Positions 1-11,577 of a stretch of DNA of 11,577 nucleotides are shown here, in pieces. The stretch spans positions 1-11,577 of the forward strand of contig JBGTHM010000041.1 of the NCBI GenBank assembly GCA_041746255.1, read 5' to 3'. Every line of letters begins with the position of its first letter. Position 1 is the stretch's first letter. Made by a program: the position numbers and the translations under genes. A model generated the notes under the pieces. The model was not told the origin of the DNA, did not search any database, and saw only the letters and a program-made list of their open reading frames with translations. This DNA comes from Fibrobacteria bacterium. Its GTDB lineage: Bacteria > Fibrobacterota > Fibrobacteria > UBA11236.

Positions 1-662
1 CCGAGCAGGCTGTTGGTATTCGCGGAGCCCCGCTGGTCGTCCCCATTGGGATTGGCTTCGTCGATGTAATTGGTGGAGGCCTTGCGGTCGCCCCGGACAC
101 CCTTTCCGGGGGAATTGGCCGTGGCATTGCCGGTCGATATCCACAGGTTTCCGTTTAAATCGAAAGTCATGGAACCGCCGGTATGGCAGCATCCGGTATA
201 GGACAGGGGGATTTCCAACAGGATTTTTTCGGTATTGGCCGCGAGCGAATTTCCCTTGAGGGTGAAGCGGGAAACGCGCCAGGATTTATTCGCGTTAACG
301 CTCCAGAATATATAGACCCAGGCGTTGGTTGCGAATTCGGGGTCGAGCGCGATTCCGGTTACGCCATGTTCCGCCTCGGTCAAGGCGGGTAGATTAATCA
401 GGTCGACGACATTCTTGGTAGTGGGCAACCACATGCGGACCTTGCCCTTCAGTTCCACGAAGAGGATTCGTCCGTCTTCGGTTATCACCATTTCTATCGG
501 CTCCGAAATTCCATGGGTATTTCGGGTTACCAGGGGCACCTTTACGAAGTCCTTCTCCGTGACATCGGGGCAACCGGGATAGCTCAGCTGTGCCTGCGCG
601 TCCGCAACGCTCAAGGCCAGGGCAATGCCAGCCGAAAGTCCGAATTTCATAAAGCTCCACAT
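1..662 (-). CDS. Secreted PQQ-dependent sugar dehydrogenase (glucose/sorbosone dehydrogenase, GSDH beta-propeller family), 5' part; runs off the left edge
   Basis: Not in the ORF track because it has no stop in the window. Manual translation is open from ATG 662 (AAGGAG 6 nt upstream; alternative in-frame ATG 650) to base 1: MWSFMKFGLSAGIALALSVADAQA|QLSYPGCPDV...EPIEMVITEDGRILFVELKGKVR...EHGVTGIALDPEFATNAWVYIFWS...RVSRFTL...EKILLEIP...CCHTGGSMTFDLNGNLWISTGN...SANTNSLLG. It has a signal peptide (AQA), and the GIALDPxF..N.WVY, RVSRF, HxGG..F..G.L.ISTG and N.LLG motifs typical of GSDH proteins. Confidence 0.9.
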   Translation of the reverse strand, partial: MWSFMKFGLSAGIALALSVADAQAQLSYPGCPDVTEKDFVKVPLVTRNTHGISEPIEMVITEDGRILFVELKGKVRMWLPTTKNVVDLINLPALTEAEHGVTGIALDPEFATNAWVYIFWSVNANKSWRVSRFTLKGNSLAANTEKILLEIPLSYTGCCHTGGSMTFDLNGNLWISTGNATANSPGKGVRGDRKASTNYIDEANPNGDDQRGSANTNSLL

Positions 663-2107: not shown

Positions 2108-3910
2108 TCAACCCGCAGCCCGCCGCAGAAAATCCATGTGGGCCTTGAACGCCAGATGCGCCCTGCGCTCCACCGCCGCCCGCGACAGCCCTTTGAACAG
2201 CCGCATAAACCGCACCGCCAACCGTTCCCACGCCGATAATTTCACCAGCCCCCGGGCATGCAAATGGTGGATGATATCGCCGAACACCCCGTTCCATACC
2301 ACGATGCTCATGTTCATCCCCCAGATGAAATTGCTGCGATGGCAGATGATGAGATGATGTTCCTGATTATTCAAACCCGGATGGCGGTAGCTGGCCTTCA
2401 GCCGGATAAAACCGATGCGTTCATAAAGCGGAAGCAATTCCGTTACCGCCGAGGTCAAAAGCCAATGGCGGTCGGAAAGCAAGAAGTGCTTGAGCCCATG
2501 CTCGAAAAGCCCTTGCAACAAATCGGTGCCGCGATAATCCGCGTCGATACACAAACGCGATACTTCGATCAGGTTCGACTTGGGCGGAATCGCCACGGGA
2601 TACTTCCTCCCGGGAAAACCGGCCTCACTGTCCAGCACGGTGTCTTCGGAGTTGGGAAAGCCGAAGGTAACCGATCCCACCAATCTATCGCCATGGTAGG
2701 CGCAGAGAATACGGCTGCGGGCGTCGAGCAAGTTGGCCATGTCTTCGGGAGCGGTGCCCGCCGGAACCTTGCCGGCCAGCACATAGCTGTCGCGCCGCAA
2801 GTGAAGCACCCGGGCATAATCTTCCAGCGTCTTTACGGAACGAAACCGCAAGTGGCCGCGAATCCGCCGCGAACGGAATCCGCAGGCCATCAGCCGCGCG
2901 GGGGTCCAGCATTGGGTGTAAATCAGGTAATCGCATAGGGCATTGTGAAGACGGTAGTGGATATCCAAACATTGTACGCCGAATTTGACTTCGTCGGCAT
3001 GCGCGGCTTGCACCCAGGCGACGCGGCCCACATAGACCAGGTGCCTGAACCCGGCCAGTTCGAAATGCAATTCGACTTCCATGCCTTCGAATAGCAGGGT
3101 GGAGGCGTCGCCGGATAAAAAGGCCATTCCCATTTCGCCGTTGATGTCGGAGACTTCGAGCCGGCACCAGCGGTCGAACAACAGCGGGTGCTTGAAGCGC
3201 GCGCGCAGGGTCAAACCGGGCGTAACGGCCAGGCGCGATCCGTCGCGACGGTCGTTGGAGACCACGCGGGGAAAGTTGAGATCGAGCCGCCGCAAACCCA
3301 GGCGGATACCCGATTTCATGGCGGTCATGTTTTTGACTTCGCAGACGGCCTCGAATTCCTGGCCGGGCTTGAGCGCAACCTTGAGATGCAATTCTTCTCC
3401 GACATGGAGCTGTTGGCTTATGGTTTCTTCAACGACTACGCCGAAGCCGATGGAAGAGAAATCCCATAACTTCACTTTCAACCATTGGTCACTTCCGGTT
3501 AACCGGACATGGGTGGGAAAGATTCCCAATTCACGCAAGGAAATGCGATCTAAGTGGCGTAATTCTTCACCGCGCCGGGGTTTGAATTCACCGGTGACCA
3601 GACTGTCCAAATCCACTGCAGGGGAAGCGGTCCAATCCACTTCGGGTTTGGCGACGGGTTTTTTGGGCGGGGAGTCGGAGCTGTTGGTAGGCTTTACGCT
3701 CCGTTCGAGAAATCGATCCAAATGCCGGTCCAAGGCGTTTCCGGAGCTGAGGCCATCGACGGAGAGGGATTCATGGAGCGCCTCACCGTGGGGCCCGGAA
3801 GGTTCATCCAGGGCCTCTCGCATCTCATGGGCAATGGATAGCGCCATCGGGGGATGGGCCCTGAGGTTGCGACGACGTAATTTGTTCTTCTTGGACATGA
3901 TGATTTGCAT
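2108..3910 (-). CDS. Tandem PilZ domains fused to a GNAT-fold N-acyl amino acid synthase (FeeM/LuxI-like) domain, paralog A
   Basis: 600-aa ORF. PilZ1 has RHLDR (RxxxR, aa118-122) and DFSSIG (DxSxxG, aa150-155). PilZ2 has RDGSR and a degenerate DINGEMG. The C-terminal GNAT has EDYARVLHLRRDSY, ILCAYHGDRLVGSV, LIEVSRLCIDADYRG and LYERIGF. Start uncertain (3910 or 3898); the first ~85 aa look disordered. Confidence 0.8.
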   Translation of the reverse strand: MQIIMSKKNKLRRRNLRAHPPMALSIAHEMREALDEPSGPHGEALHESLSVDGLSSGNALDRHLDRFLERSVKPTNSSDSPPKKPVAKPEVDWTASPAVDLDSLVTGEFKPRRGEELRHLDRISLRELGIFPTHVRLTGSDQWLKVKLWDFSSIGFGVVVEETISQQLHVGEELHLKVALKPGQEFEAVCEVKNMTAMKSGIRLGLRRLDLNFPRVVSNDRRDGSRLAVTPGLTLRARFKHPLLFDRWCRLEVSDINGEMGMAFLSGDASTLLFEGMEVELHFELAGFRHLVYVGRVAWVQAAHADEVKFGVQCLDIHYRLHNALCDYLIYTQCWTPARLMACGFRSRRIRGHLRFRSVKTLEDYARVLHLRRDSYVLAGKVPAGTAPEDMANLLDARSRILCAYHGDRLVGSVTFGFPNSEDTVLDSEAGFPGRKYPVAIPPKSNLIEVSRLCIDADYRGTDLLQGLFEHGLKHFLLSDRHWLLTSAVTELLPLYERIGFIRLKASYRHPGLNNQEHHLIICHRSNFIWGMNMSIVVWNGVFGDIIHHLHARGLVKLSAWERLAVRFMRLFKGLSRAAVERRAHLAFKAHMDFLRRAAG

Positions 3911-3928
3911 TCGATGGTATTCTGAAAT

Positions 3929-4696
3929 TCAATTCCAGGGTAGGGTGATGGGTTTATCGGAATCGCCGGTTTGCGTGGATTTGGGAGTGGGCGCCGCGGT
4001 TTTATCGGGACGACTCCAGGTGAAGTTCCAATCAACCCGTTGGTCCACATCGTCGAGAATTCCCTGCAACATGACTCCGTGCAGGCGGCAGGTGCCGGTA
4101 ACACCGTGCAGCACGGCCTTCAAATCGTCTTCGGAATGGATGGCGTCGCGGAAATTCTGTTCCATGAGTTTGGTATGACCGAGATCGACTTCGGCATGTT
4201 CGCCGATAAATTCCATGGCGTTGTCGGGCACGCCGATAGCCCGCAGTTTCTCGATAAGGCCGGGGCCGTTTTCCGCGGGCAGCATTTCCAGGTGATAGAC
4301 ATAGCCGAGATAGGCGAGGGGATGGCTTTGCATGATTTGGTACACGGCGAAAGCGGAGAGGGCCTCGGTGGTGGGCAGGGGGCGGCCGTCGGGAATGCCG
4401 GTGATGTCGCCGTCGAGCTTGCGCAAATCTTCGAGGGCCAACAGGTGATGTCCGTATTCGGAGGCGGCATGCCTTTGCACTCTTTGAAAGATATCCGCCT
4501 GGCGGCCTTTGAGACGCGAGGCGAATAGGGCATAGGTGTGTGGGTTGTCGCGCGTGTTGTAATAGGTTTCGCGCAATAGGGTTTTATAATGTTCGAGGGT
4601 GAGCTGGTTCGCGGCCAACTTTTGGAAGAAAGGCGTTTGCAAGAGACGGGCGCGGGCATCGTGCCATTCATTGCGGATTTGTTCGATGACGTCCAT
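3929..4696 (-). CDS. Heme-oxygenase-like diiron oxidase (HDO; iron-containing redox enzyme, TenA/PqqC/CADD superfamily)
   Basis: 255 aa with a helical pattern. The full six-ligand set is visible: E80-x2-H83 (HAASEYGHH), E137 (YVYHLE) and H167-x3-D171-x2-H174 (EHAEVDLGH). RBS AAGGAG lies within the end of the upstream gene, with 2 nt between stop and ATG. Confidence 0.88.
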   Translation of the reverse strand: MDVIEQIRNEWHDARARLLQTPFFQKLAANQLTLEHYKTLLRETYYNTRDNPHTYALFASRLKGRQADIFQRVQRHAASEYGHHLLALEDLRKLDGDITGIPDGRPLPTTEALSAFAVYQIMQSHPLAYLGYVYHLEMLPAENGPGLIEKLRAIGVPDNAMEFIGEHAEVDLGHTKLMEQNFRDAIHSEDDLKAVLHGVTGTCRLHGVMLQGILDDVDQRVDWNFTWSRPDKTAAPTPKSTQTGDSDKPITLPWN

Positions 4697-4698
4697 GG

Positions 4699-6270
4699 TT
4701 ATTTCTCCTTCTTAGGATTTGCGCGCCGATACTCGCGGGCAAGGCGGAGAGATTCGACGCCGCGGGCGAGGGGACGGAAGGCGACAAGGAAGCGCAGGTA
4801 AAGCCGTTGCGGGAGGGATGGCCGCAGCATGCCTTTTTCCATAAGTTCTTCGATCATTTCGGAGAAGAGCAGGTTCCAGCGGATGATGGACATGTTGCGT
4901 CCGAAGAGGAAGGCGTTGCGGTGGGCGAGGATGAGGTGGTGGACCTGGCCGCCGATATCGTCGCGGCGACAGGACGCCCTCATTTTGACAAATCCGATGC
5001 CTTTATAAAGTGGCCAAAGTGACTCGGTACACATGGTAATCATCCAATGTCGATCGGATAACAGGATGGTTTTGACGCATTGGATCAAAACCTTTCGTAC
5101 CAAGTCCCCACCGCGATAATGTAGATGAGTTGCCAGGGCAAAAGCTTCGATCATCCGTTTTTTGGGAGGGACTTTTACGGGGTATTTTTGTCCCGGAAAT
5201 AATTCTTCCGATCTCAGTATAATTTCTTCCCGATCCGGAAAGGTCAAGGTAGCGCAGCCTACCAAATTTTTATGATGGTAAGCGCAGATAATCTGACTTT
5301 TGGAGTCGAGTGGTGTCGCCAAGGATTCGACGGTGCAATTCGGATCCTTTTTTCCGGCATGGATGTAGGCGTTTTGCCTGAGGGCAAGTACCGCCGCATA
5401 ATCGTCCATGGTTTCGGCATAGGAAAACTCCAATTTCTCCCCGAAACGCTTCAGAAAAAAACCAAATTTGCCGAGTCGTGCCGGACTCAAGCTTTCTGAA
5501 TCAAGGATATACTCCCCGATAATATTCGAGAGTTCTGAAGAAATATCCTGACTTTCCAGGATAAAAAGCAAGTTTCCAAAGTTGTCCTTTTTAAGGACGC
5601 ATATTTTTCCGGAAAAGGCTGTGGAATGCTTGCTGGGCAAATCAAATTGAATATCAACATTCATTTCATTGAAAAGCAACAGGGAAGGATCTTCACAGCG
5701 AAACCCAAATCCCATTTTTGGGTAAAGGGATACTGTGGTTAATCTACACCTCTCATTGTATAAGAATGGATTAGTCATGGTTGCCGTAAACCGGTCATTT
5801 GTGAGGCTCAAACGGTCCGGGTGGTTTTCGGGGGAGGAAAGGTCAGGAAGGATATCGAGGCGTCTGATTCCTAGTCGAAATCCTTGCTCATAGGGTTCGG
5901 TGTAAATCACTTCCCCTAATGCGGGATATACAATGCCATCCCATGTCTGGATTAGTAAGTCAAATATCTCGCCTTTATTGGCGGAGATTAATTTTCCGCA
6001 GGCGGAAGAATAAACCAGTTCCAGTTCCAAACTGGAAAAGCCCCACAACCGTGCGGGTGTCCATTCGGGATATTTCTTCGAACGCAACCTAAAAGAGAGG
6101 AAACTGAGCTCTCTTTCATTGACCCGAACCGCCGATTTACCGCCGCGGCATTCAAAAGGTCGCCACAGATCAGGGGGTAACTTGTTTAAATCAATGAAAT
6201 TCCGGGAAACGTCCAAACCAAGATTGACATCCGGTCGGGCAATTTCGGAAATATTGCCTACTTTTTCCAT
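4699..6270 (-). CDS. Degenerate tandem PilZ domains fused to a GNAT-fold N-acyl amino acid synthase domain, paralog B
   Basis: 523 aa, colinear with 2108..3910: LWGFSS vs LWDFSS, GFRLGIRRLD vs GIRLGLRRLD, DDYAAVLALRQNAYIHAGK vs EDYARVLHLRRDSYVLAGK, FPGQKYPVKVPPK vs FPGRKYPVAIPPK, LLSDRHW in both, LYKGIGF vs LYERIGF, HHLIL vs HHLII. No clear SD. Confidence 0.8.
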   Translation of the reverse strand: MEKVGNISEIARPDVNLGLDVSRNFIDLNKLPPDLWRPFECRGGKSAVRVNERELSFLSFRLRSKKYPEWTPARLWGFSSLELELVYSSACGKLISANKGEIFDLLIQTWDGIVYPALGEVIYTEPYEQGFRLGIRRLDILPDLSSPENHPDRLSLTNDRFTATMTNPFLYNERCRLTTVSLYPKMGFGFRCEDPSLLLFNEMNVDIQFDLPSKHSTAFSGKICVLKKDNFGNLLFILESQDISSELSNIIGEYILDSESLSPARLGKFGFFLKRFGEKLEFSYAETMDDYAAVLALRQNAYIHAGKKDPNCTVESLATPLDSKSQIICAYHHKNLVGCATLTFPDREEIILRSEELFPGQKYPVKVPPKKRMIEAFALATHLHYRGGDLVRKVLIQCVKTILLSDRHWMITMCTESLWPLYKGIGFVKMRASCRRDDIGGQVHHLILAHRNAFLFGRNMSIIRWNLLFSEMIEELMEKGMLRPSLPQRLYLRFLVAFRPLARGVESLRLAREYRRANPKKEK

Positions 6271-6381
6271 GTATGATCGAAACTGAAGACGAAAACCATG
6301 TCTATTCTAGGCGGTGGAAGTCGGTTTAGTCAAAAATTAGCGTTAGAATCGGGTGGGGACAGGGAATAGTAGAGTTGGGAA

Positions 6382-6415
6382 AATTGAGCTTTGGGGGCAC
6401 CGCCAAGGGTCAATT
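6382..6415. promoter_or_regulatory. Imperfect 34-bp inverted repeat in the divergent promoter region
   Basis: AATTGAGCTTTGGGGGC|ACCGCCAAGGGTCAATT: 13 of 17 symmetric pairs with perfect outer AATTGA/TCAATT. It lies between the operon start (6270) and the kinase start (6454). Confidence 0.4.
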
Positions 6416-6453
6416 GCCGTTACCACTCAGATTAAGGACATTCGGCGGGGTTA

Positions 6454-8622
6454 ATGGAAAAAATTTACTCAAATAAAATATGGGTCTCATTTTTACGGTA
6501 CATTGAAAAAAATCACGGCAAGAACACGGTTCGTGACATTCTTAACGAATTATCGGTTGACGAAGTAGAACTAAGCGACCCGGCGGGATTTCAAACCGAC
6601 GAGTGGGCGATACGGTTTGCCGAAGTCGCCATGAAGTATACGAACGATTCTCAATTGGCTTACCACTGTGGCCTGAATTTTTCCGATAGCCTGGGAATTA
6701 TTGGAAGCATGGCGATCGGATACACATCGCCTGAAGTGGTAATGGATCAGGTCGTTAAAATTGAAACCCAGATTGCGCTGAAAACCCAGTTGAAAATGGA
6801 GAAATTGGGGAATAACCGCTATAAGGTGGCGGTTTCCTTCAAGGATGGGTTCCTGGAACACGAGATGGGCTGCCAGAATAGAGTCGGTGGGTATGAGGCC
6901 ATCCCGCGTATATTCGGTTTGCCCTATGCAAAAGTGGACCATACTAAATGCCGGTTCAAAGGTGCGGAGCAATGTGAATACTTAATTACAATGCCTGAGT
7001 CGGGTTTCATTATTTATAAAAAAATTTCCGCGATTACCTTTTTATCGGCGACTGTCTGGTTTTTGATTTCCTTCGCTACTGCTTTTAGCCAAACCAACCT
7101 TCTTGGAGCAGGCGGCTTGTTCGTGCTGGGTATAGTTCTTTATACCAAGTATAAAAGTAGGCAAGCGCAAGAGTCCTTAAAGTGGAGCATTTTTTCCACC
7201 GAAGCTTTAATAAATCAAAATTCAGAATTGATGTATTCCAACCGACAAATTTCCCACCTCCAAAAATTTACGGTAGACTTGAACAGAAGCACAAGTATAC
7301 AGCAATTATGTGATTTGACCGTGGGATTTCTGACCAAAGAATTCGACTATGGATCAAGTCAGATTTGGTTGGTGGATAATGTTGAAAAATCTGTGGTCTG
7401 CCGTAGCGCCAAAGGTTATCCGGAACAAATGGAAAAATTAATCCGGAGCACTCCCTTCGCCTTTGAAGAAAATTGGAAAAACCCAGAGGGAATTTTAGCG
7501 CAAACATTGCATGATAGAAAAACGTTAGTTGTGAATGAGGTAGAAGAAACCTCGTCGAAATTATCCAGTTCCGGAGCCGATTTTCTACGCCAACTGAATT
7601 TAAGCTCCTTTATCGTTACGCCCCTTTTTGAAATCACTCGTCCCATTGGCGTCCTGGCCGCGGAACATCATGATGGCCGGAAATTGGACAATAAGGACAA
7701 ATTATTGTTCCAATCCATATCCAATATTGTCGCAAACGCCTTGGTGAAGGCGGAGTTATTCGCTTCCATGGAAGATAAAATCCAGGAAAAAACCCGCGAC
7801 TTGGAATTTACCAGCCGGCAATTACTGGTTGCCAAGGAAATGGCCATTCAAAGCGAAAAGATGTCTTCATTGGGGCAAATGGCGGCAGGTGTGGCACATG
7901 AAATCAATAACCCTTTGAATTTTCTGGTGAATGTGATTCCTGAAATTCGTCGCGATATGGAAGGATTGAATAAAATCCGCTTGATTGCCGAAGGCTCTAT
8001 TGAAAACAAGGAGAGAATGCTTGAAATAAAGCAAATCGAGAAATCCTATGATTTGGAATCCCATTTGGAAGAGATGGAATTTGTTTTTGGCCGAATCAAA
8101 AAGGCATTGAATAAAAGCGCGCAAATCGTCAATAGTTTAAAAGTATTTTCGCGATCCTCCGATAAGGAAAAGGTTTCGGAAGAGAGCTTTCGGCAAATGA
8201 TTTCGGAGGTTTTGGAATTAATCCCTAAAACAAATATCGGTGAAACAAAAATAAATATTTCCGGTTCAGAAAACATCACTTGGAGCGTAAACAAGAATGA
8301 AATGGAACAGGCCATTCTGATTTTTATCAATAACGCGATTGACGCGATGGAGAAGCAGGGCGAACTGAAAATAGTTATCCGGGAGGAAGCGGAAGGTCCA
8401 ATGCTCCTGTTCAAGGACAGTGGCCCGGGAGTACCACCGGAAATACAACGGAAAATTTTCGACCCATTTTATACCACCAAGCCTCCCGGCAAAGGAACGG
8501 GACTGGGCCTGACCATTGCCACGGAAATTGTCAAGAAATATGGTGGAAAAATCGAGCTGATTTCCAAGCCCGGTGAGGGAGCGTCCTTTTTGCTTTATTT
8601 TGAAAATACGCGTAGGCAGTAA
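6454..8622 (+). CDS. Membrane sensor histidine kinase: H-NOX/V4R-like N-terminal sensor, 2 TM, GAF, HisKA, HATPase_c
   Basis: H-box GVAHEINNPLN, N-box EQAILIFINNAIDAM, G1 DSGPGV, F-box IFDPFYTTK, G2 GKGTGLGL. GAF: SQIWLVD...SSFIVTPL...PIGVLAAE...LLFQSISNIVANAL. Two hydrophobic helices at ~aa190-232. V4R-type C(QNR.G)...H-x2-C-x7-C (HTKCRFKGAEQCEY). Confidence 0.93.
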   Translation: MEKIYSNKIWVSFLRYIEKNHGKNTVRDILNELSVDEVELSDPAGFQTDEWAIRFAEVAMKYTNDSQLAYHCGLNFSDSLGIIGSMAIGYTSPEVVMDQVVKIETQIALKTQLKMEKLGNNRYKVAVSFKDGFLEHEMGCQNRVGGYEAIPRIFGLPYAKVDHTKCRFKGAEQCEYLITMPESGFIIYKKISAITFLSATVWFLISFATAFSQTNLLGAGGLFVLGIVLYTKYKSRQAQESLKWSIFSTEALINQNSELMYSNRQISHLQKFTVDLNRSTSIQQLCDLTVGFLTKEFDYGSSQIWLVDNVEKSVVCRSAKGYPEQMEKLIRSTPFAFEENWKNPEGILAQTLHDRKTLVVNEVEETSSKLSSSGADFLRQLNLSSFIVTPLFEITRPIGVLAAEHHDGRKLDNKDKLLFQSISNIVANALVKAELFASMEDKIQEKTRDLEFTSRQLLVAKEMAIQSEKMSSLGQMAAGVAHEINNPLNFLVNVIPEIRRDMEGLNKIRLIAEGSIENKERMLEIKQIEKSYDLESHLEEMEFVFGRIKKALNKSAQIVNSLKVFSRSSDKEKVSEESFRQMISEVLELIPKTNIGETKINISGSENITWSVNKNEMEQAILIFINNAIDAMEKQGELKIVIREEAEGPMLLFKDSGPGVPPEIQRKIFDPFYTTKPPGKGTGLGLTIATEIVKKYGGKIELISKPGEGASFLLYFENTRRQ

Positions 8623-8640
8623 TTCGGGTGGAAACCCGAG
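8623..8640. terminator. Small hairpin between convergent stop codons, possible bidirectional terminator
   Basis: TTCGGGT-GGAA-ACCCGAG fills most of the 22-bp gap between the stops at 8622 and 8645. There is no strong U-tract. Confidence 0.4.
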
Positions 8641-8644
8641 CTAA

Positions 8645-9991
8645 TCATTTCGCGGTGACTGTGGCATATTCATTAAATTCGATAGCCGCGCCAGGGATCA
8701 GTTTGAATCTTCCCCGCGCAGTTTTCTGAATAACCAGTTTCGAATTTTCACTTGTGAGTTTATCGATTAACCTGGAAAATCGTATTTCGAAATTCGAATT
8801 TTTCTGCCCCAAGGTGATTTCGAATGATCGCTTCAATTCCCTGTATTCAAATTCAGATTTACCATCATTGAGATAGGACAACAGAAGTTGTTTCAGTATT
8901 TTTGCAGGAATTCCTTTGATGAGCGTTTTTCCGTCCAGGGTAATACTCTCATCCGCTTCAAAATAGCAATACACTTCCTTGGGAGAGAGAAGCTGCAGAA
9001 CCAGTTCATGCTGCCTTCGAATATCCGGTGTAGTGCGCCTGTCTTCGTTTTCTGCATTTGCCAATAGTTTGCTAATGGGTATTTGATTGGGTCTTTCGGT
9101 CTTTTCATGCTTGATTAGAATGGAGTAAAGCGGGGACGAATAACATGCTCCTTTGTATATGACAACCCTTTTCCTTCGCGGGCAAAAATAGTCCCGTTCC
9201 GCTTTCCACACCGTCCAATTCGGCACTTTGAATTTCGATAAGTTGAGTTTATGTTCAAGTTGAAAATCGGACATGGACTTTTTTTTCGCGAGCAATTCGC
9301 CATCGTGAATGATTTCGGATGCGTATTCCTCATAGTCGCCCTCCCACAACAAGTCTTTGATGGTCCGTCGATCGGCAATCAATTGTATATGTTCAAAGGG
9401 AGACAAGCCAAAACTTAGCGGGAGCCATCTGATTTGTTCAATCGCGATCAAATCATAATTGAAAGGGATGTTGTCAAAGGTTTCCAAATCATCGATATAG
9501 ATCATATGGGAGAAAGTCGTCTTTCCTTCTACAACCTTTTTGACTCTTTGAAATGTGTGGTTCGGAAAGAGATTTTCGATAAAAAGTTTTCCGATAGGAA
9601 AGAACACTTCCCGGACGTCATTAACCCGGATAAACAGGCCGATAATAGGAAGAATCCATTGCAAAAAGGTTCCAGTACTTACAAAAGTACCGCTATTGGC
9701 CATTATCAGCATTTTCCGGTGGAATTCAACGGCATCCAGGCCTCTATCCACCATGAAGGGCTCGATTTCCTGGGTCATGGCATGATGCCAACGAACTGGC
9801 ACTTTCATATTCTTAGTCCAGAGGCATTCCACCAAAGCGGCGTCGAAACACTCCTTGTCGTCCACGGTGAAGCCGTGACCCCGCCAAAAATCGGCGACGG
9901 TTTCCGCAGGTAATTCAGCCAATTGGGCCAAATAAAAGCTACGCCAGAATTCATGGCGTGCTAAAGTCTCAGCATTTTTTTTAGGAGTCAT
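8645..9991 (-). CDS. Putative one-component transcriptional regulator: uncharacterised N-terminal sensor domain plus C-terminal winged-helix DNA-binding domain
   Basis: The ORF track starts at TTG 10081; ATG 9991 (448 aa) is preferred because similarity to the paralog begins 11 aa later. The C-terminus DESITLDGKTLIKGIPAKILKQLL...EFEYRELK...NFEIRFSRLIDKL...IQKTARGRFKL has an OmpR/ToxR-like winged-helix layout. No receiver domain is visible. Confidence 0.7.
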   Translation of the reverse strand: MTPKKNAETLARHEFWRSFYLAQLAELPAETVADFWRGHGFTVDDKECFDAALVECLWTKNMKVPVRWHHAMTQEIEPFMVDRGLDAVEFHRKMLIMANSGTFVSTGTFLQWILPIIGLFIRVNDVREVFFPIGKLFIENLFPNHTFQRVKKVVEGKTTFSHMIYIDDLETFDNIPFNYDLIAIEQIRWLPLSFGLSPFEHIQLIADRRTIKDLLWEGDYEEYASEIIHDGELLAKKKSMSDFQLEHKLNLSKFKVPNWTVWKAERDYFCPRRKRVVIYKGACYSSPLYSILIKHEKTERPNQIPISKLLANAENEDRRTTPDIRRQHELVLQLLSPKEVYCYFEADESITLDGKTLIKGIPAKILKQLLLSYLNDGKSEFEYRELKRSFEITLGQKNSNFEIRFSRLIDKLTSENSKLVIQKTARGRFKLIPGAAIEFNEYATVTAK

Positions 9992-10230
9992 TTTTGAATT
10001 TTGAAAAAATCGATGCGACCTGGACACAATTACCATGGATGCGAGGTCTAGAAAGTAGCAACCCTTTTGATCTTGCCACAACTACATTTCGATTGAAATT
10101 ACAGGAAATTTGGCTGAAATCCCAAATAGCTGGACAACCAGAGCTGCCTAACTCCCACAATCGAATTATGCTGCAAATCCGTCGACAAGTGGGCTTTCGG
10201 TGTCTCCCCGGAGGTTGAGTCAAAGTCGAC

Positions 10231-10291: not shown

Positions 10292-10522
10292 ATGAAAACC
10301 GCTAACTTTACCGAGTTTCGCAAGCACGCCGCTGCGTTCCTGGATGATGTCGAAAAAGGTGAGGTCGTCCGGATTTTAAGGCATGGAAAAGCCGTCGCCG
10401 ATTTAACCCCCATACATTCGGAGGATAACCCCTCCTGGAAAAGGATGCCCCCCAGGCTTCCGTTGAGCGGCGTCTCCCTGTCCAAGGCCATCCTGCAAAA
10501 CCGGAAAGATGCTGCAAGTTGA
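10292..10522 (+). CDS. Type II antitoxin, Phd/YefM family
   Basis: MKTANFTEFRKHAAAFLDDVEKGEVVRILRHGKAVADLTP is a classic Phd/YefM N-terminal DNA-binding domain. RBS AAGGGG. The stop overlaps the toxin start (TTGA). Confidence 0.93.
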   Translation: MKTANFTEFRKHAAAFLDDVEKGEVVRILRHGKAVADLTPIHSEDNPSWKRMPPRLPLSGVSLSKAILQNRKDAAS

Positions 10523-10941
10523 AGGTCTTTTTCGACTCCTCGGCCCTGGTCAAAAGGTATGTCCCCGAAAAGGGAACGGATACAGTGCTCCTAATCTGCG
10601 AACAGGCCAGCCAGCTAGGGATATCCGTAATCTGTTATCCGGAAATCATTTCCGCTCTCTGCCGATTACGGCGAGATAAGCAGATTGATGGCTCGCACTA
10701 TGTGACCGCCAAGCAAGGTATCGCCCAGGATCTGCGGGATGCGACTTTGTGCAATATCACCGAAACCACTGTGCTTCAGGCCATCCTGCTTCTGGAGGAA
10801 AATACCTTGCGGGCAATGGACTCCTTCCACATCGCTGCTGCTTTGGAATGGGGAGCGGACCTTTTCGTATCTAGTGACCTTCACCAGAGCAAGGCCGCGA
10901 AAAAAGCCGGGCTTAACGTCCGAACGGTTCCAGGCACATGA
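10519..10941 (+). CDS. vapC: Type II toxin, VapC family PIN-domain ribonuclease
   Basis: 140 aa with a TTG start. PIN acidic residues: D6 (FFDSSALVK), E42 (YPEIISAL), D101 (LRAMDSFHIAAA) and D120 (FVSSD). Confidence 0.93.
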   Translation: MKVFFDSSALVKRYVPEKGTDTVLLICEQASQLGISVICYPEIISALCRLRRDKQIDGSHYVTAKQGIAQDLRDATLCNITETTVLQAILLLEENTLRAMDSFHIAAALEWGADLFVSSDLHQSKAAKKAGLNVRTVPGT

Positions 10942-10985: not shown

Positions 10986-11494
10986 CCAGTGGAGATCCGA
11001 ACCCAATCCGAGGAATATTCGGGAACCGCTCTACGGTCCAAATCCGCCATGATTTCAAACGCTCCTGTTACCGTGCCATGCTATCCGAATTTCCGCCCGA
11101 GGATGTGAAAGAGTATTTCTCCAAGGTTCCCTTAATGATTGGGGATGTCCCGTACCGAGGGAAAGACCTTTTTCGTCTGCTTTGGAAGAAGTCGGCCAAG
11201 ATTCCGGCGTCATGGGATGCCGCCACGGATAATCTACTCGAAGCCTTCCTCCTGGAAAAGAACGCGGATCCGCAGGCCTTTATCCGCAAAATCCTTTGGT
11301 ATTGCAACGGAAGCTCCCCAACGCCGGGAAGGGTCACCTTGACCTGGATTTATCCCAAACTCGAATCATGGTTCAAATCCATCGACCCCCGGGATGCCGG
11401 AGTATCCCTCATCAATTTTTTCGTAGAGATGTGGCTCCCTGACCTTCACCCCAAAAACTGGATCAAATTCGATGCGAAAAATGGCATTTTTTAA
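10982..11494 (+). pseudogene. Paralog of the 8645..9991 regulator, interrupted by an IS at 11440
   Basis: A hand ungapped alignment from RHDFKRSCY to EMWLP against RHEFWRSFY to ENLFP gives 38/132 identities (~29%). Similarity stops exactly where the IS end begins, and the last 17 aa are IS-derived. Confidence 0.8.
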
Positions 11495-11577
11495 CTCATC
11501 GAAGGAGATCAAAAATGAAGGGCAAAAGGTATTCGGACGAGCAGATTATTTACGCCATTCGGCAAGTCGAAGCAGGC
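11440..11577 (+). mobile_element. IS3-family insertion sequence (probably IS407 group), left end; continues beyond the window
   Basis: TG-initial terminal repeat-like sequence TGACCTTCACCCCAAAAACTGGATCA at 11440-11465, followed by RBS GAAGGAG and an OrfA start. Confidence 0.85.
11515..11577 (+). CDS. IS3-family transposase OrfA, N-terminal 21 codons (partial)
   Basis: MKGKRYSDEQIIYAIRQVEAG matches the MKKxRFxEEQIIxILxxxEAG HTH start of IS3/IS407-group OrfA. Not in the ORF track. Confidence 0.88.
   Translation, partial: MKGKRYSDEQIIYAIRQVEAG

Follow-up and report, generated by a model that had tools for sequence, protein, structure and literature searches.

We begin by considering the window, by which we mean the whole stretch of DNA that was analysed (contig JBGTHM010000041.1, 11,577 nt, from assembly GCA_041746255.1 of an uncultured Fibrobacterota bacterium). 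Its features are the following.

2108-3910, minus strand: synthase B, an ORF of 600 aa
3929-4696, minus strand: HDO, a putative heme-oxygenase-like diiron (dimetal) oxidase, an ORF of 255 aa
4699-6270, minus strand: synthase A, an ORF of 523 aa
6271-6453, no strand: divergent intergenic region of 183 bp, with the predicted operon promoter inside
6454-8622, plus strand: histidine kinase, an ORF of 722 aa
8645-10081, minus strand: winged-helix neighbour, an ORF of 478 aa (the protein database starts it at M31, giving 448 aa, 8645-9991)

The preliminary description of this DNA is confirmed for the operon genes, for the 2-nt gap (4697-4698) and the 18-nt gap (3911-3928) between them, and for the divergent region of 183 bp. 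The winged-helix gene is convergent with the kinase gene, not co-directional. Within the divergent region, a sigma-70-like sequence (TTGACT-18-TAGAAT, minus strand, 6333-6304) matches the consensus at 10 of 12 positions, and comparable TTGnn-N17/18-TAnAAT arrangements were recognized by eye in 12 of 15 orthologous upstream regions. An imperfect palindrome is located at 6382-6415.

Synthase B combines a disordered N-terminus (residues 1 to about 110), tandem PilZ domains, a FeeM-type GNAT and a conserved helical C-terminal tail. Pfam places PilZ (1.1e-10, in two stretches) and FeeM (1.5e-10) each above its own cut-off, so that the earlier assignment of these domains, like that of the HDO, is borne out at the family level. 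The first PilZ domain carries RISLR (RxxxR) and DFSSIG (DxSxxG), the second has RxxxR with a variant second motif, and a conserved Glu is found within the IEVSRL motif. B is the most conserved gene of the module (60% mean pairwise identity), and many B-type orthologues have DFTSIS in place of DxSxxG. A profile of B-type proteins found no solved structure at E<=1 and did not recover the FeeM structure; the FeeM likeness of B is therefore that given by the Pfam model.

Synthase A is a full-length paralogue of B (34% identity across 499 aa, E 1e-98). It has a FeeM-type GNAT behind two PilZ-like domains, which are degenerate and in tandem. Its FeeM match (2.3e-5, 24.6 bits) is under the 27-bit cut-off and the Pfam scan of the window protein gave no PilZ match; RxxxR is retained, while the DxSxxG position reads GFSSLE, so that this c-di-GMP motif has been lost. 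The view that both synthases are PilZ-gated can thus be kept for B, where both motifs are canonical, and not for A in the window. FeeM was matched in 14 and PilZ in 4 of 15 A-type orthologues, whose mean pairwise identity is 39%, and A is the fast-evolving, allele-like member of the module. Seven GGDEF proteins are encoded in the window's genome.

The HDO gene matches Haem_oxygenas_2 (PF14518, 6.9e-18), and its product is predicted to be a dimetal oxidase with three His and three carboxylates that are invariant among 11 orthologues (E80, H83, E137, H167, D171, H174). The closest solved relatives are 3DDE (1.3e-31), MboA (4e-9), BesC (6e-5) and CADD (2e-3), in a family that also includes UndA. 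The nearest of them, 3DDE, is however uncharacterised, and the characterised enzymes have low identity to the window protein.

We turn our attention to the kinase, in which a sensor domain (1-185) is followed by a hydrophobic hairpin (about 190-231), GAF (1e-8), HisKA and HATPase_c (1.4e-22). The hairpin comprises one clear TM segment and a second hydrophobic stretch. The GAF domain was missing from the preliminary description, which had called the sensor V4R-like. This call holds as an H-NOX/V4R fold: in the AF2 model (pLDDT 87) the best Foldseek matches of the sensor are H-NOX domains (E 7e-8, TM 0.65-0.75). The domain is not a clean V4R member, for the weak Pfam matches of 19 orthologues are Arabinose_bd in 15, V4R in 4 and HNOB in 3, and the window's sensor matches Arabinose_bd only (E 0.031). 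It has the fold and the hydrophobic ligand pocket in common with H-NOX and V4R/XylR-DmpR domains and differs from them in being fused, via the membrane hairpin and GAF, to a kinase. The sensor orthologues have neither a conserved His on the heme-ligand helix nor YxSxR, which we take to be the H-NOX heme motifs. Three Cys (C140, C166, C174) are invariant and one His (H163) nearly so, a set that suggests a metal site; this cluster is found where the H-x2-C-x7-C segment aligns with a Shewanella H-NOX (4U99).

Within the window the kinase is an orphan, as described earlier. Its relatives, however, are adjoined by a conserved ACP-like-REC response regulator, and the window's genome has one on another contig (C80), which is likely the partner of the kinase. 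The N-terminal domain of this regulator weakly resembles acyl carrier protein.

Of 24 distinct Fibrobacterota loci, 19 have the kinase / A-HDO-B order, a recurrence which argues that the arrangement is not due to chance. The PilZ-GNAT, HDO and sensor kinase genes, whose joint conservation had been proposed as a check, therefore do occur together. Two of the five exceptions are cut by contig ends. One locus is without HDO (L008), one is without the kinase (L009) and one has B alone (L013). Of 201 genomes sampled from the phylum, 19 have the sensor domain and 17 the tandem-PilZ-GNAT, and in the window's family the sensor domain and the GNAT pair share a contig, about 100-250 bp apart, in 12 of the 14 genomes with the pair. 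In two other families (loci L016-L018), the sensor kinase and a second kinase stand beside a single-PilZ-FeeM synthase (FeeM 1e-36 to 1e-39), with a SAM methyltransferase next to the synthase in L016 and L018, the two loci scanned with Pfam. In Bdellovibrionota MAGs, the HDO adjoins a tandem-PilZ-GNAT in 8 of 11 loci, and in 5 of those 8 the next protein has 724-731 aa, with GAF and a class III cyclase in all four scanned with Pfam. By hhalign (97.4%, E 1e-11, 161 columns), the kinase sensor is homologous to the N-terminal domain of these five proteins.

Another line of evidence is the allelic variation between related loci. In L030 and L031 the module DNA is 91-100% identical outside one block of 65-85% identity, which runs from the sensor domain across the intergenic region to the far end of A. 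In the block dS is 1.0-2.2, whereas windows of 60 codons in the flanking module genes give 0.05-0.6 (whole-gene dS is 0.22 for HDO and 0.20 for B). The window and L001 show the same pattern. Since the breakpoints coincide with the sensor/TM and A/HDO boundaries, the block follows functional units. The sensor domain and synthase A move together as a recombined, exchangeable block of alleles, on the evidence of one clean pair (L030/L031) and one supportive pair (window/L001). Across 14 related loci, with groups named after the identity tables had been seen, sensor and A distances are correlated when B is controlled (partial Mantel r 0.56, 5000 permutations), compared with r 0.17 (p 0.10) for sensor and B when A is controlled, and the split of the A tree into two clades (SH-aLRT 100) is rejected by the B data (AU p 0.017). 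In the comQXP and agrBDC pherotype loci, divergent alleles likewise replace the signal-making gene jointly with the sensing portion of the receptor kinase, beside conserved flanks. The signals of those loci are peptides, unlike the lipid-like product proposed here, and the block at the present locus is clean in one pair and supported by a second.

Adjacency across families and phyla, together with the allele block, shows that the evolutionary link of the synthase/oxidase genes to the sensor kinase is real. A rather unlikely alternative, though the most serious one, is that the operon product is a surfactant or a lipid with a structural or surface role rather than a signal, that the kinase responds to an unrelated cue and does no more than regulate the operon, and that the block reflects linkage. 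The cues offered are a hydrophobic substrate-derived compound, or a redox or metal state read through the Cys3His site. Known NAS products do behave as surfactants (PMC4897644). The 5' ends of the kinase and A genes adjoin, so physical linkage alone could carry both, and the block is one unbroken stretch of DNA with the intergenic region at its centre. The suggested metal site fits such a cue, and two loci have the sensor kinase with no GNAT nearby, beside a B12-radical SAM, an AMP-binding enzyme and a carrier protein in L014 and beside GSDH in L015. On the other hand, the link to PilZ-FeeM synthases is kept in three Fibrobacterota families whose synthases differ in architecture, and it reaches Bdellovibrionota, where the output domain differs. 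This persistence makes an unrelated cue a hard explanation, and the breakpoints at functional units also speak against it.

It is improbable, in our estimate, that the degenerate PilZ-like domains of A dock on the sensor/membrane region of the kinase and couple c-di-GMP or enzyme state to phosphorylation, in which case the co-replaced block would keep a matched protein interface and not a ligand specificity. PilZ adaptors that bind kinases exist, such as HapZ-SagS. In the close pairs the most divergent parts are the PilZ1/PilZ2 region of A (51-58% identity, compared with 69-78% for its GNAT) and the sensor and TM parts of the kinase; with the divergence of A highest in the PilZ-like region and not in the GNAT, protein contact fits as well as a ligand. 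The sensor domain is nevertheless kept in L016-L018 and in Bdellovibrionota despite a different PilZ layout of the synthase.

The winged-helix neighbour has no Pfam match. In the AF2 model of its 448-aa form (pLDDT 88), VIA-align matches residues 11-300 to H-NOX domains (Z 7.8-9.8, about 175 aligned) and residues 338-442 to the DNA-binding domains of BaeR, SaeR and AdeR (Z 9.5-10.2). The winged-helix call is upheld as an OmpR-type fold, and the protein is modelled as a candidate one-component regulator with an H-NOX-fold domain and an OmpR/PhoB-type winged helix. With a ligand-pocket fold joined to a DNA-binding fold, a gene inside the low-GC block of the kinase and A, paralogues about 3.5 kb past the kinase in G166 and a fragment near the kinase in L003, one could propose, extending the preliminary description, that the kinase and this protein are both dedicated receptors of the product and that the latter controls the 183-bp region. 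We regard this as very doubtful. Only 3 of the 24 loci have such a winged-helix protein close to the module; its protein family is phylum-wide, mostly single-copy and away from the module, with members in 125 of 201 Fibrobacterota genomes, among them 73 of the 78 from one bacterial family in which the GNAT pair and the kinase sensor domain are found in 0 of 78; it is multi-copy in the window's genome (7 matches); and the sensor domains of neighbour and kinase have no profile similarity. Of the two proposed sensors, then, the kinase is the one that co-occurs with the synthase/oxidase genes, and the winged-helix protein, which is not a conserved partner, is a local addition outside the conserved system.

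We give hardly any credence to a chimeric MAG contig as the source of the window's gene adjacency: GC does fall within A from 59% to 44-48% near position 4950 and the assembly has 130 contigs, but the ORF of A is intact over its full length and can be aligned with its orthologues, 18 further loci have this gene order, the GC gradient is seen in the independent assemblies L001, L030 and L031, and the kinase and A are low in GC in four independent assemblies.

In the LuxM/LuxN and AinS/AinR systems of Vibrio, the gene of an acyl-homoserine-lactone synthase lies beside that of a membrane kinase receptor. This layout, in which LuxR is absent and an acyl-amide synthase adjoins the kinase that detects what it makes, is the one proposed for the window. 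Those systems have no PilZ and no HDO and use another synthase family; LuxN senses through a polytopic membrane domain and the window kinase would do so through a cytoplasmic H-NOX/V4R-fold domain, and between the window kinase and a LuxN model the kinase core alone matches. Closer to the synthases are Nas343 and Nas354, two N-acyltyrosine synthases of metagenomic origin that carry a PilZ domain (Thies et al. 2016, PMC4897644). In that report, a NAS+PilZ fusion yields N-acyltyrosine in E. coli, c-di-GMP regulation is put forward by the authors as a proposal only, and the catalytic Glu lies within an AEVSAL-like motif, as in IEVSRL of B. The domain order is reversed, with NAS N-terminal and one PilZ C-terminal, and no second synthase, HDO or kinase accompanies them there, because the authors judged the genes to be outside a pathway operon. 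The tailoring clusters of FeeM/NAS synthases (the fee eDNA cluster, NasY and the TyzACB/TrzAS pathways) have, in the portions of the reports considered, nitroreductase-type flavin oxidases and ThiF-like cyclases, with no HDO, PilZ domain or dedicated sensor kinase (PMC12479983, PMC12856293). Among the literature matches listed, no paper was found pairing an HDO with a NAS/FeeM synthase. The statement that no characterised system has this composition must be softened: as far as these sources go, the composition is not wholly without precedent, given the published PilZ-NAS fusions and the LuxM/LuxN-type pairs.

The reading that we prefer, with a probability of about 0.45, is that the window represents a conserved, uncharacterised make-and-sense module in the form it takes in Fibrobacterota. 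Its operon, in which two paralogous acyl-ACP-type N-acyl synthases flank an HDO, would be driven by a sigma-70-type promoter, and the most likely joint product of A, HDO and B would be an N-acyl amino-acid-like lipid with an O2-dependent modification. B, with its canonical c-di-GMP site, is probably switched by c-di-GMP; A in the window is without such a site. The kinase, anchored by a short membrane hairpin, would bind the product or an intermediate of the pathway in its cytoplasmic H-NOX/V4R-fold pocket, which has no heme signature and is accompanied by GAF, and would then signal to the response regulator encoded on C80. The gene set is conserved, and it probably makes and detects a modified lipid-like molecule.

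We begin by considering the gene layout of the window, which is the entire 11,577-base contig C41 of a genome of 4.59 Mb (130 contigs, 53% GC). Its genes are as follows.

2108-3910, minus strand: synthase B, a FeeM-type GNAT synthase with PilZ (Pfam: PilZ, 1.1e-10, two stretches; FeeM, 1.5e-10)
3929-4696, minus strand: HDO, a heme-oxygenase-like dimetal oxidase (Pfam: PF14518, 6.9e-18)
4699-6270, minus strand: synthase A, paralogous to B (Pfam: FeeM, 2.3e-5, below the cut-off; no PilZ)
6454-8622, plus strand: sensor histidine kinase, divergent from A (Pfam: GAF, HisKA, HATPase_c)
8645-10081, minus strand: winged-helix neighbour, convergent with the kinase (the protein database starts it at M31, which gives 448 aa and an end at 9991)

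The genes named in the preliminary description are real, and the gaps of 2 nt and 18 nt and the divergent region of 183 bp that it gave are confirmed from the ORF coordinates. It was also right that the layout contains no LuxR: no window protein has an Autoind_synth or a LuxR-type match, and with neither a LuxI-family synthase nor a LuxR-type receptor among its proteins the window falls outside LuxI/LuxR quorum sensing. NCBIfam has no name for any of the enzymes. The two synthases are paralogues over their full length (34% identity, E 1e-98). A sigma-70-like promoter is found at 6333-6304, ahead of A, and one is present 5' of A in 12 of the 15 orthologous upstream regions listed, as counted by eye; the promoter alone is conserved, and no palindrome conserved across the orthologous intergenic regions was found.

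The kinase and the A, HDO and B genes make up a conserved synthase-oxidase-sensor module. Their order, kinase and then A, HDO and B, is shared by 19 of 24 Fibrobacterota loci (tblastn, the window counted), which bears out the expectation that synthase and oxidase genes co-occur with the sensor kinase. The 23 further distinct loci come from alignment searches (B-type and HDO), from a single metagenome scan, whose 3 loci were too few to survey alleles at population level, and from one fetched genome region. A locus search from the A sequence alone found no relatives, and an alignment of both paralogues had no usable conserved stretch; the B-type alignment succeeded. As for the exceptions, L007 and L036 are truncated by contig ends, L008 (6816-11725) has three GNATs with the HDO absent, L009 has no sensor kinase within 7.7 kb upstream, and L013 has B alone. 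The locus L001, of the same genus as the window, has two additional genes, for a small GNAT and a second HDO, inserted between its kinase and A. Of the 201 genomes sampled from the phylum, 19 have the sensor domain and 17 the tandem-PilZ-GNAT; within the window's own family 14 genomes hold the GNAT pair, and in 12 of them the pair and the sensor domain are on one contig. These tallies include the unpublished genome G194, which contributed no sequence to the analysis, and each is one lower without it. An ABC-F ATPase gene comes after B in 9 of the first 13 loci, and in the window's genome it is on another contig, C129. There are variations in the neighbourhood as well: two A-HDO-B sets stand in tandem in L005 (the same as L043; 4930-14807) with a class III cyclase gene between them, additional GNAT fragments come after B in L042 (1713-7811), and a class III adenylate/guanylate cyclase gene (~500-570 aa) is found a few kb from the module in L002, L005, L010, L011 and L013.

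The preliminary description had also made the winged-helix neighbour part of the system. Its domain calls for this protein are sound at the fold level: in the predicted model (pLDDT 88), residues 11-300 align with H-NOX domains (Z 7.8-9.8, ~175 residues), and residues 338-442 with the OmpR-type DNA-binding domains of BaeR, SaeR and AdeR (Z 9.5-10.2, rmsd 2.4-2.9, ~90 residues). The partnership is not a conserved one. The family is found near the module in only 3 of the 24 loci (the window; the genome G166, with three tandem copies ~3.5 kb past the kinase; and L003, with a fragment), and it is spread through the phylum, being present in 125 of the 201 sampled genomes (one fewer without G194) and, single-copy, in 73 of the 78 genomes of one Fibrobacterota family, in which the GNAT pair and the kinase sensor domain are each found in 0 of 78. 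The winged-helix protein falls outside the conserved gene set; what stands of the earlier interpretation is the synthase-oxidase-sensor module. The idea that the kinase and the winged-helix neighbour are paralogous receptors was dropped because hhalign gives no profile similarity between their sensor domains.

Pfam has no match at E<=10 for the winged-helix neighbour or for 27 members of its family, and Pfam contains no model for this family of ~440-aa proteins, which combine an H-NOX fold with a winged helix of the OmpR type. The family has 5-7 matches in a few genomes and 7 in that of the window, where further stretches are found at 11021-11577 of the window and at C4:14425-15027, C73:40538-43092 and C80:184-1662 on other contigs; the paralogues lie at contig ends, and the copies break this genome's assembly. 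The last 141 nt of the window (11437-11577) recur unchanged at the end of contig C3 and mark a repeat boundary. At the other end, window 1-400 is 81.5% identical to C73:1362-1761, a paralogue of a GSDH-domain gene.

We turn our attention to the kinase. HATPase_c scores 80.6 bits against 26.4, and HisKA scores 23.5 bits, below 26.9, but with the H-box sequence AHEINNPLN; the HATPase_c match and the H-box sequence place the protein among the two-component histidine kinases. It has one clear transmembrane segment (190-212) and a second hydrophobic stretch, which suggests a membrane hairpin with the sensor (residues 1-185) on the cytoplasmic side. The description of this sensor as V4R-like holds at the level of fold. 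An AlphaFold model from an alignment of 19 orthologues (pLDDT 87) has H-NOX domains as its best Foldseek matches over the whole length (E 7e-8 to 1e-5, TM 0.6-0.75, ~185 columns), so that the predicted model belongs to the H-NOX fold. A V4R family match is lacking in the window copy, for which V4R (PF02830) is absent at E<=10 and Arabinose_bd is the only match (E 0.031); in a permissive Pfam search of the 19 members, Arabinose_bd is matched by 15 (best 4.8e-6), V4R by 4 (best 8.5e-5), HNOB by 3 and DUF2378 by 1. Three cysteines (C140, C166, C174) do not vary across the 19 orthologues and H163 hardly does; these residues line up with a segment of Shewanella H-NOX, H-x2-C-x7-C, which we take to be a zinc site. 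Heme binding by H-NOX (PF07700) uses a proximal His and the YxSxR residues. With positions assigned by approximate co-linearity with H-NOX, the 19 orthologues have no conserved His in the sensor helix 93-107, where E104 is nearly invariant, and no YxSxR near 131-137. Since the would-be heme-ligand helix carries no conserved His, we expect the sensor ligand to be non-heme and hydrophobic.

Does the sensor accompany such enzymes outside the window's family? In two other Fibrobacterota families, the loci L016, L017 and L018 contain the same sensor kinase and a sensor-less second kinase beside a single-PilZ-FeeM synthase (~400 aa, FeeM 1e-36 to 1e-39), followed in L016 and L018, the two loci scanned there, by a SAM methyltransferase. 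The kinase pair is found without a GNAT in L014 and L015; in the first of these (8682-11714; one genome, another family) it stands beside a B12-binding radical SAM enzyme, an AMP-binding enzyme and a carrier protein. Distant homologues from a fourth Fibrobacterota family (L020:5412-7355 and L021:3944-5680) are 23-25% identical over the PilZ and GNAT region and have no Pfam match at E<=0.001. At E<=1e-30, a whole-database profile search gives 284 cluster representatives, most of them full-length proteins of 470-520 aa; ten were looked up and three of these are named, one as 'hypothetical protein' and two as 'GNAT family N-acetyltransferase' (Bdellovibrionaceae, Oligoflexia MAGs). A locus search from one Bdellovibrionaceae homologue alone found nothing, and an alignment of homologues succeeded. 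Among the 11 Bdellovibrionota loci fetched, the HDO is adjacent in 8 (7 by tblastn, 1 by Pfam), and a protein of 724-731 aa follows in 5, with GAF and class III cyclase domains in all four that were scanned with Pfam. The N-terminal 300 residues of all five proteins are homologous to the kinase sensor (hhalign 97.4%, E 1e-11, 161 columns). Given this homology and the adjacent PilZ-GNAT and HDO genes, one sensor domain is found with PilZ-GNAT and HDO in two phyla, its output being a kinase or a cyclase. Separately, in a MAG labelled Pseudomonadota (L041:5001-6612) an HDO (39% identical) converges on the gene of a GNAT that is related to the synthase domain; GNAT and HDO are thus paired under the label of a third phylum as well.

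Within the module, the sensor domain is passed on as a unit with synthase A. The loci L030 and L031 have unrelated flanks, which places the module in different contexts in the two genomes, and their module DNA is 91-100% identical outside one block. This block, at 65-85%, covers the first ~180 kinase codons, the intergenic region and all of A, and the same division is seen in the identities of the encoded parts.

Identity (%) by segment, L030 against L031, then window against L001 (same genus)
Kinase sensor: 83; 51
Kinase GAF: 100; 73
A PilZ1 / PilZ2: 51 / 58; 54 / 56
A GNAT: 78; 72
HDO: 96; 87
B: 95-100; 76-91

The L030/L031 block has dS of 1.0-2.2 and dN of 0.08-0.37, against dS of 0.05-0.6 in 60-codon windows of the kinase C-terminal part, HDO and B (whole-gene dS 0.22 for HDO and 0.20 for B). 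This comparison of the block with what flanks it points to an old allele imported by recombination, and not to positive selection in place. Between the window and L001, blastn gives no match from 5529 to 7261, and dS is saturated in most windows of the kinase and A and 0.5-2.1 per window in HDO and B (whole-gene 0.97 and 0.84 respectively); dN/dS windows for the pairs L003/L005 and L002/L004 are saturated and uninformative. The GC content of the kinase and A is lower than that of HDO and B in the window, L001, L030 and L031, and because these four independent assemblies share the pattern an assembly chimera is ruled out. As the 14 loci compared are interrelated and their groups were named after the identity tables had been seen, the following statistics are supportive only: sensor distances follow A when B is controlled for (partial Mantel r 0.56), sensor against B with A controlled for gives r 0.17 (p 0.10), the A tree has two clades (SH-aLRT 100), and the B data reject the A-tree split (AU p 0.017). 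The low-GC block of the window extends from ~4950 to ~10300 and takes in the winged-helix gene. At its right edge (10292-10941) is a Phd/YefM-like antitoxin ORF (76 aa, by eye) that shares 4 nt with a PIN-domain (VapC-like) gene (Pfam 2.5e-8).

We next consider the chemistry that the enzymes could perform. The earlier domain calls are good at the fold or family level (Pfam, Foldseek and model alignments). Of the two synthases described as PilZ-gated, B is the one that the term suits. The PilZ motif is defined by RxxxR and (D/N)xSxxG. Synthase B is a member of the family (PF07238, 42.2 bits against a gathering score of 22.5, 2 stretches), its PilZ1 containing both motifs (RISLR and DFSSIG) and its PilZ2 RxxxR only. 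The window's A has no Pfam PilZ match at E<=0.1; its PilZ1 keeps RVNER with GFSSLE in the second position, which departs from the definition, as does its PilZ2. The G-x-S-x-x-E form is found in the window's A and its closest relative, while PilZ1 keeps both motifs in most A-position orthologues, 4 of 15 A-type orthologues have a PilZ match at E<=0.01, and many B-type orthologues have D-F-T-S-I-S. The genome encodes 7 GGDEF proteins. A PilZ protein on contig C123 was considered as a FeeM fusion and ruled out; it is a pilus-locus PilZ beside PilM/PilN. FeeM membership is clear for B (PF21926, 41.5 bits against a gathering score of 27); the window's A, at 24.6 bits, is under the 27-bit cut-off, and a FeeM match at E<=0.01 is present in 14 of 15 A-type orthologues (best 5.8e-11). 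No solved structure matches the B-type protein profile at E<=1.

The HDO belongs to PF14518 (65.5 bits against a cut-off of 28.9). Six residues, three of them His and three carboxylates (E80, H83, E137, H167, D171 and H174), are the same in all 11 sequences aligned, and from the HxxxDxxH pattern we take them to be the ligands. The protein is nearest to 3DDE (1.3e-31), whose function is uncharacterised, and then to MboA, BesC and CADD. The synthases have an invariant Glu in the motif IEVSRL / IEAFAL (9 and 15 sequences, with no direct alignment to FeeM obtained), and this motif resembles AEVSAL, the mutated catalytic site of Nas354 as read from a primer (PMC4897644). The catalytic residue is Glu95 in FeeM and Glu103 in Nas354. 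The simplest reading is that the product is an O2-modified N-acyl amino acid; we infer its identity, and likewise its gating by c-di-GMP and its detection by the kinase. In the literature consulted, in excerpts, on PilZ/GNAT/N-acyl, on HDO with NAS or FeeM and on Fibrobacter c-di-GMP, the only precedent found is Nas343/Nas354, an N-acyltyrosine-making NAS whose PilZ is C-terminal and for which c-di-GMP control is at the level of a proposal, as it is here (PMC4897644). The N-acyl-dehydrotyrosine pathways of the stieleriacines and tyrazolones were ruled out as a match for the HDO step: their tailoring enzymes, in the portions consulted, are nitroreductase-type and ThiF-like and not HDO (PMC12479983, PMC12856293).

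A further protein of 220-233 aa, a response regulator with a C-terminal receiver domain in which the usual acidic pocket, T and K residues are present, is encoded beside the kinase in 9 of the 24 loci, and also in L014 and L015. Its N-terminal ~95 residues weakly resemble acyl carrier proteins (NodF, E 0.0087, full length; PP-binding in 2 of 9 members, best 0.079), with the usual acyl-carrier Ser replaced. The window's genome has one copy, at C80 21096-21797 (L023), and L010:3571-4242 is another example. Some 7-10 kb from the C80 copy there is a second set (C80:11064-13364, L022) of an HDO, 55% identical to that of the window, a small PilZ-less GNAT (243 aa) and a small histidine kinase; in its orthologue from a close relative (L033:4407-7198) the response regulator directly precedes the HDO.

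Combining all of this, one joint reading is that Fibrobacterota (and Bdellovibrionota, with a cyclase output) use a new class of self-made lipid-amide signals, which would be made by a c-di-GMP-gated pair of N-acyl synthases with a dimetal oxidase and read by a cytoplasmic domain of the H-NOX/V4R fold. The cassette of synthase A and sensor domain would be swapped between strains like pherotype alleles, giving private channels, and the serine-less acyl-carrier-protein mimic of the response regulator would feed back directly on the acyl-ACP-dependent synthases. Taken whole, this reading is unlikely, and we give it a probability of about 0.18.

Fibrobacterota are best known for their fibre-degrading bacteria, and we know of no self-made signal or c-di-GMP-controlled lipid pathway in them. 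Two phyla have the same repeated combination of acyl-amide synthase, heme-oxygenase-like oxidase and a single sensor-domain family with kinase or cyclase output, a pattern that speaks for a make-and-sense chemistry that is widespread and so far unstudied. With sensor and synthase exchanged in the manner of alleles, whether cognate and non-cognate pairs respond differently becomes a concrete question. If borne out, such a chemistry would provide a substrate class for an HDO clade whose sole close solved relative is 3DDE, and a non-heme ligand role for an H-NOX-fold domain.
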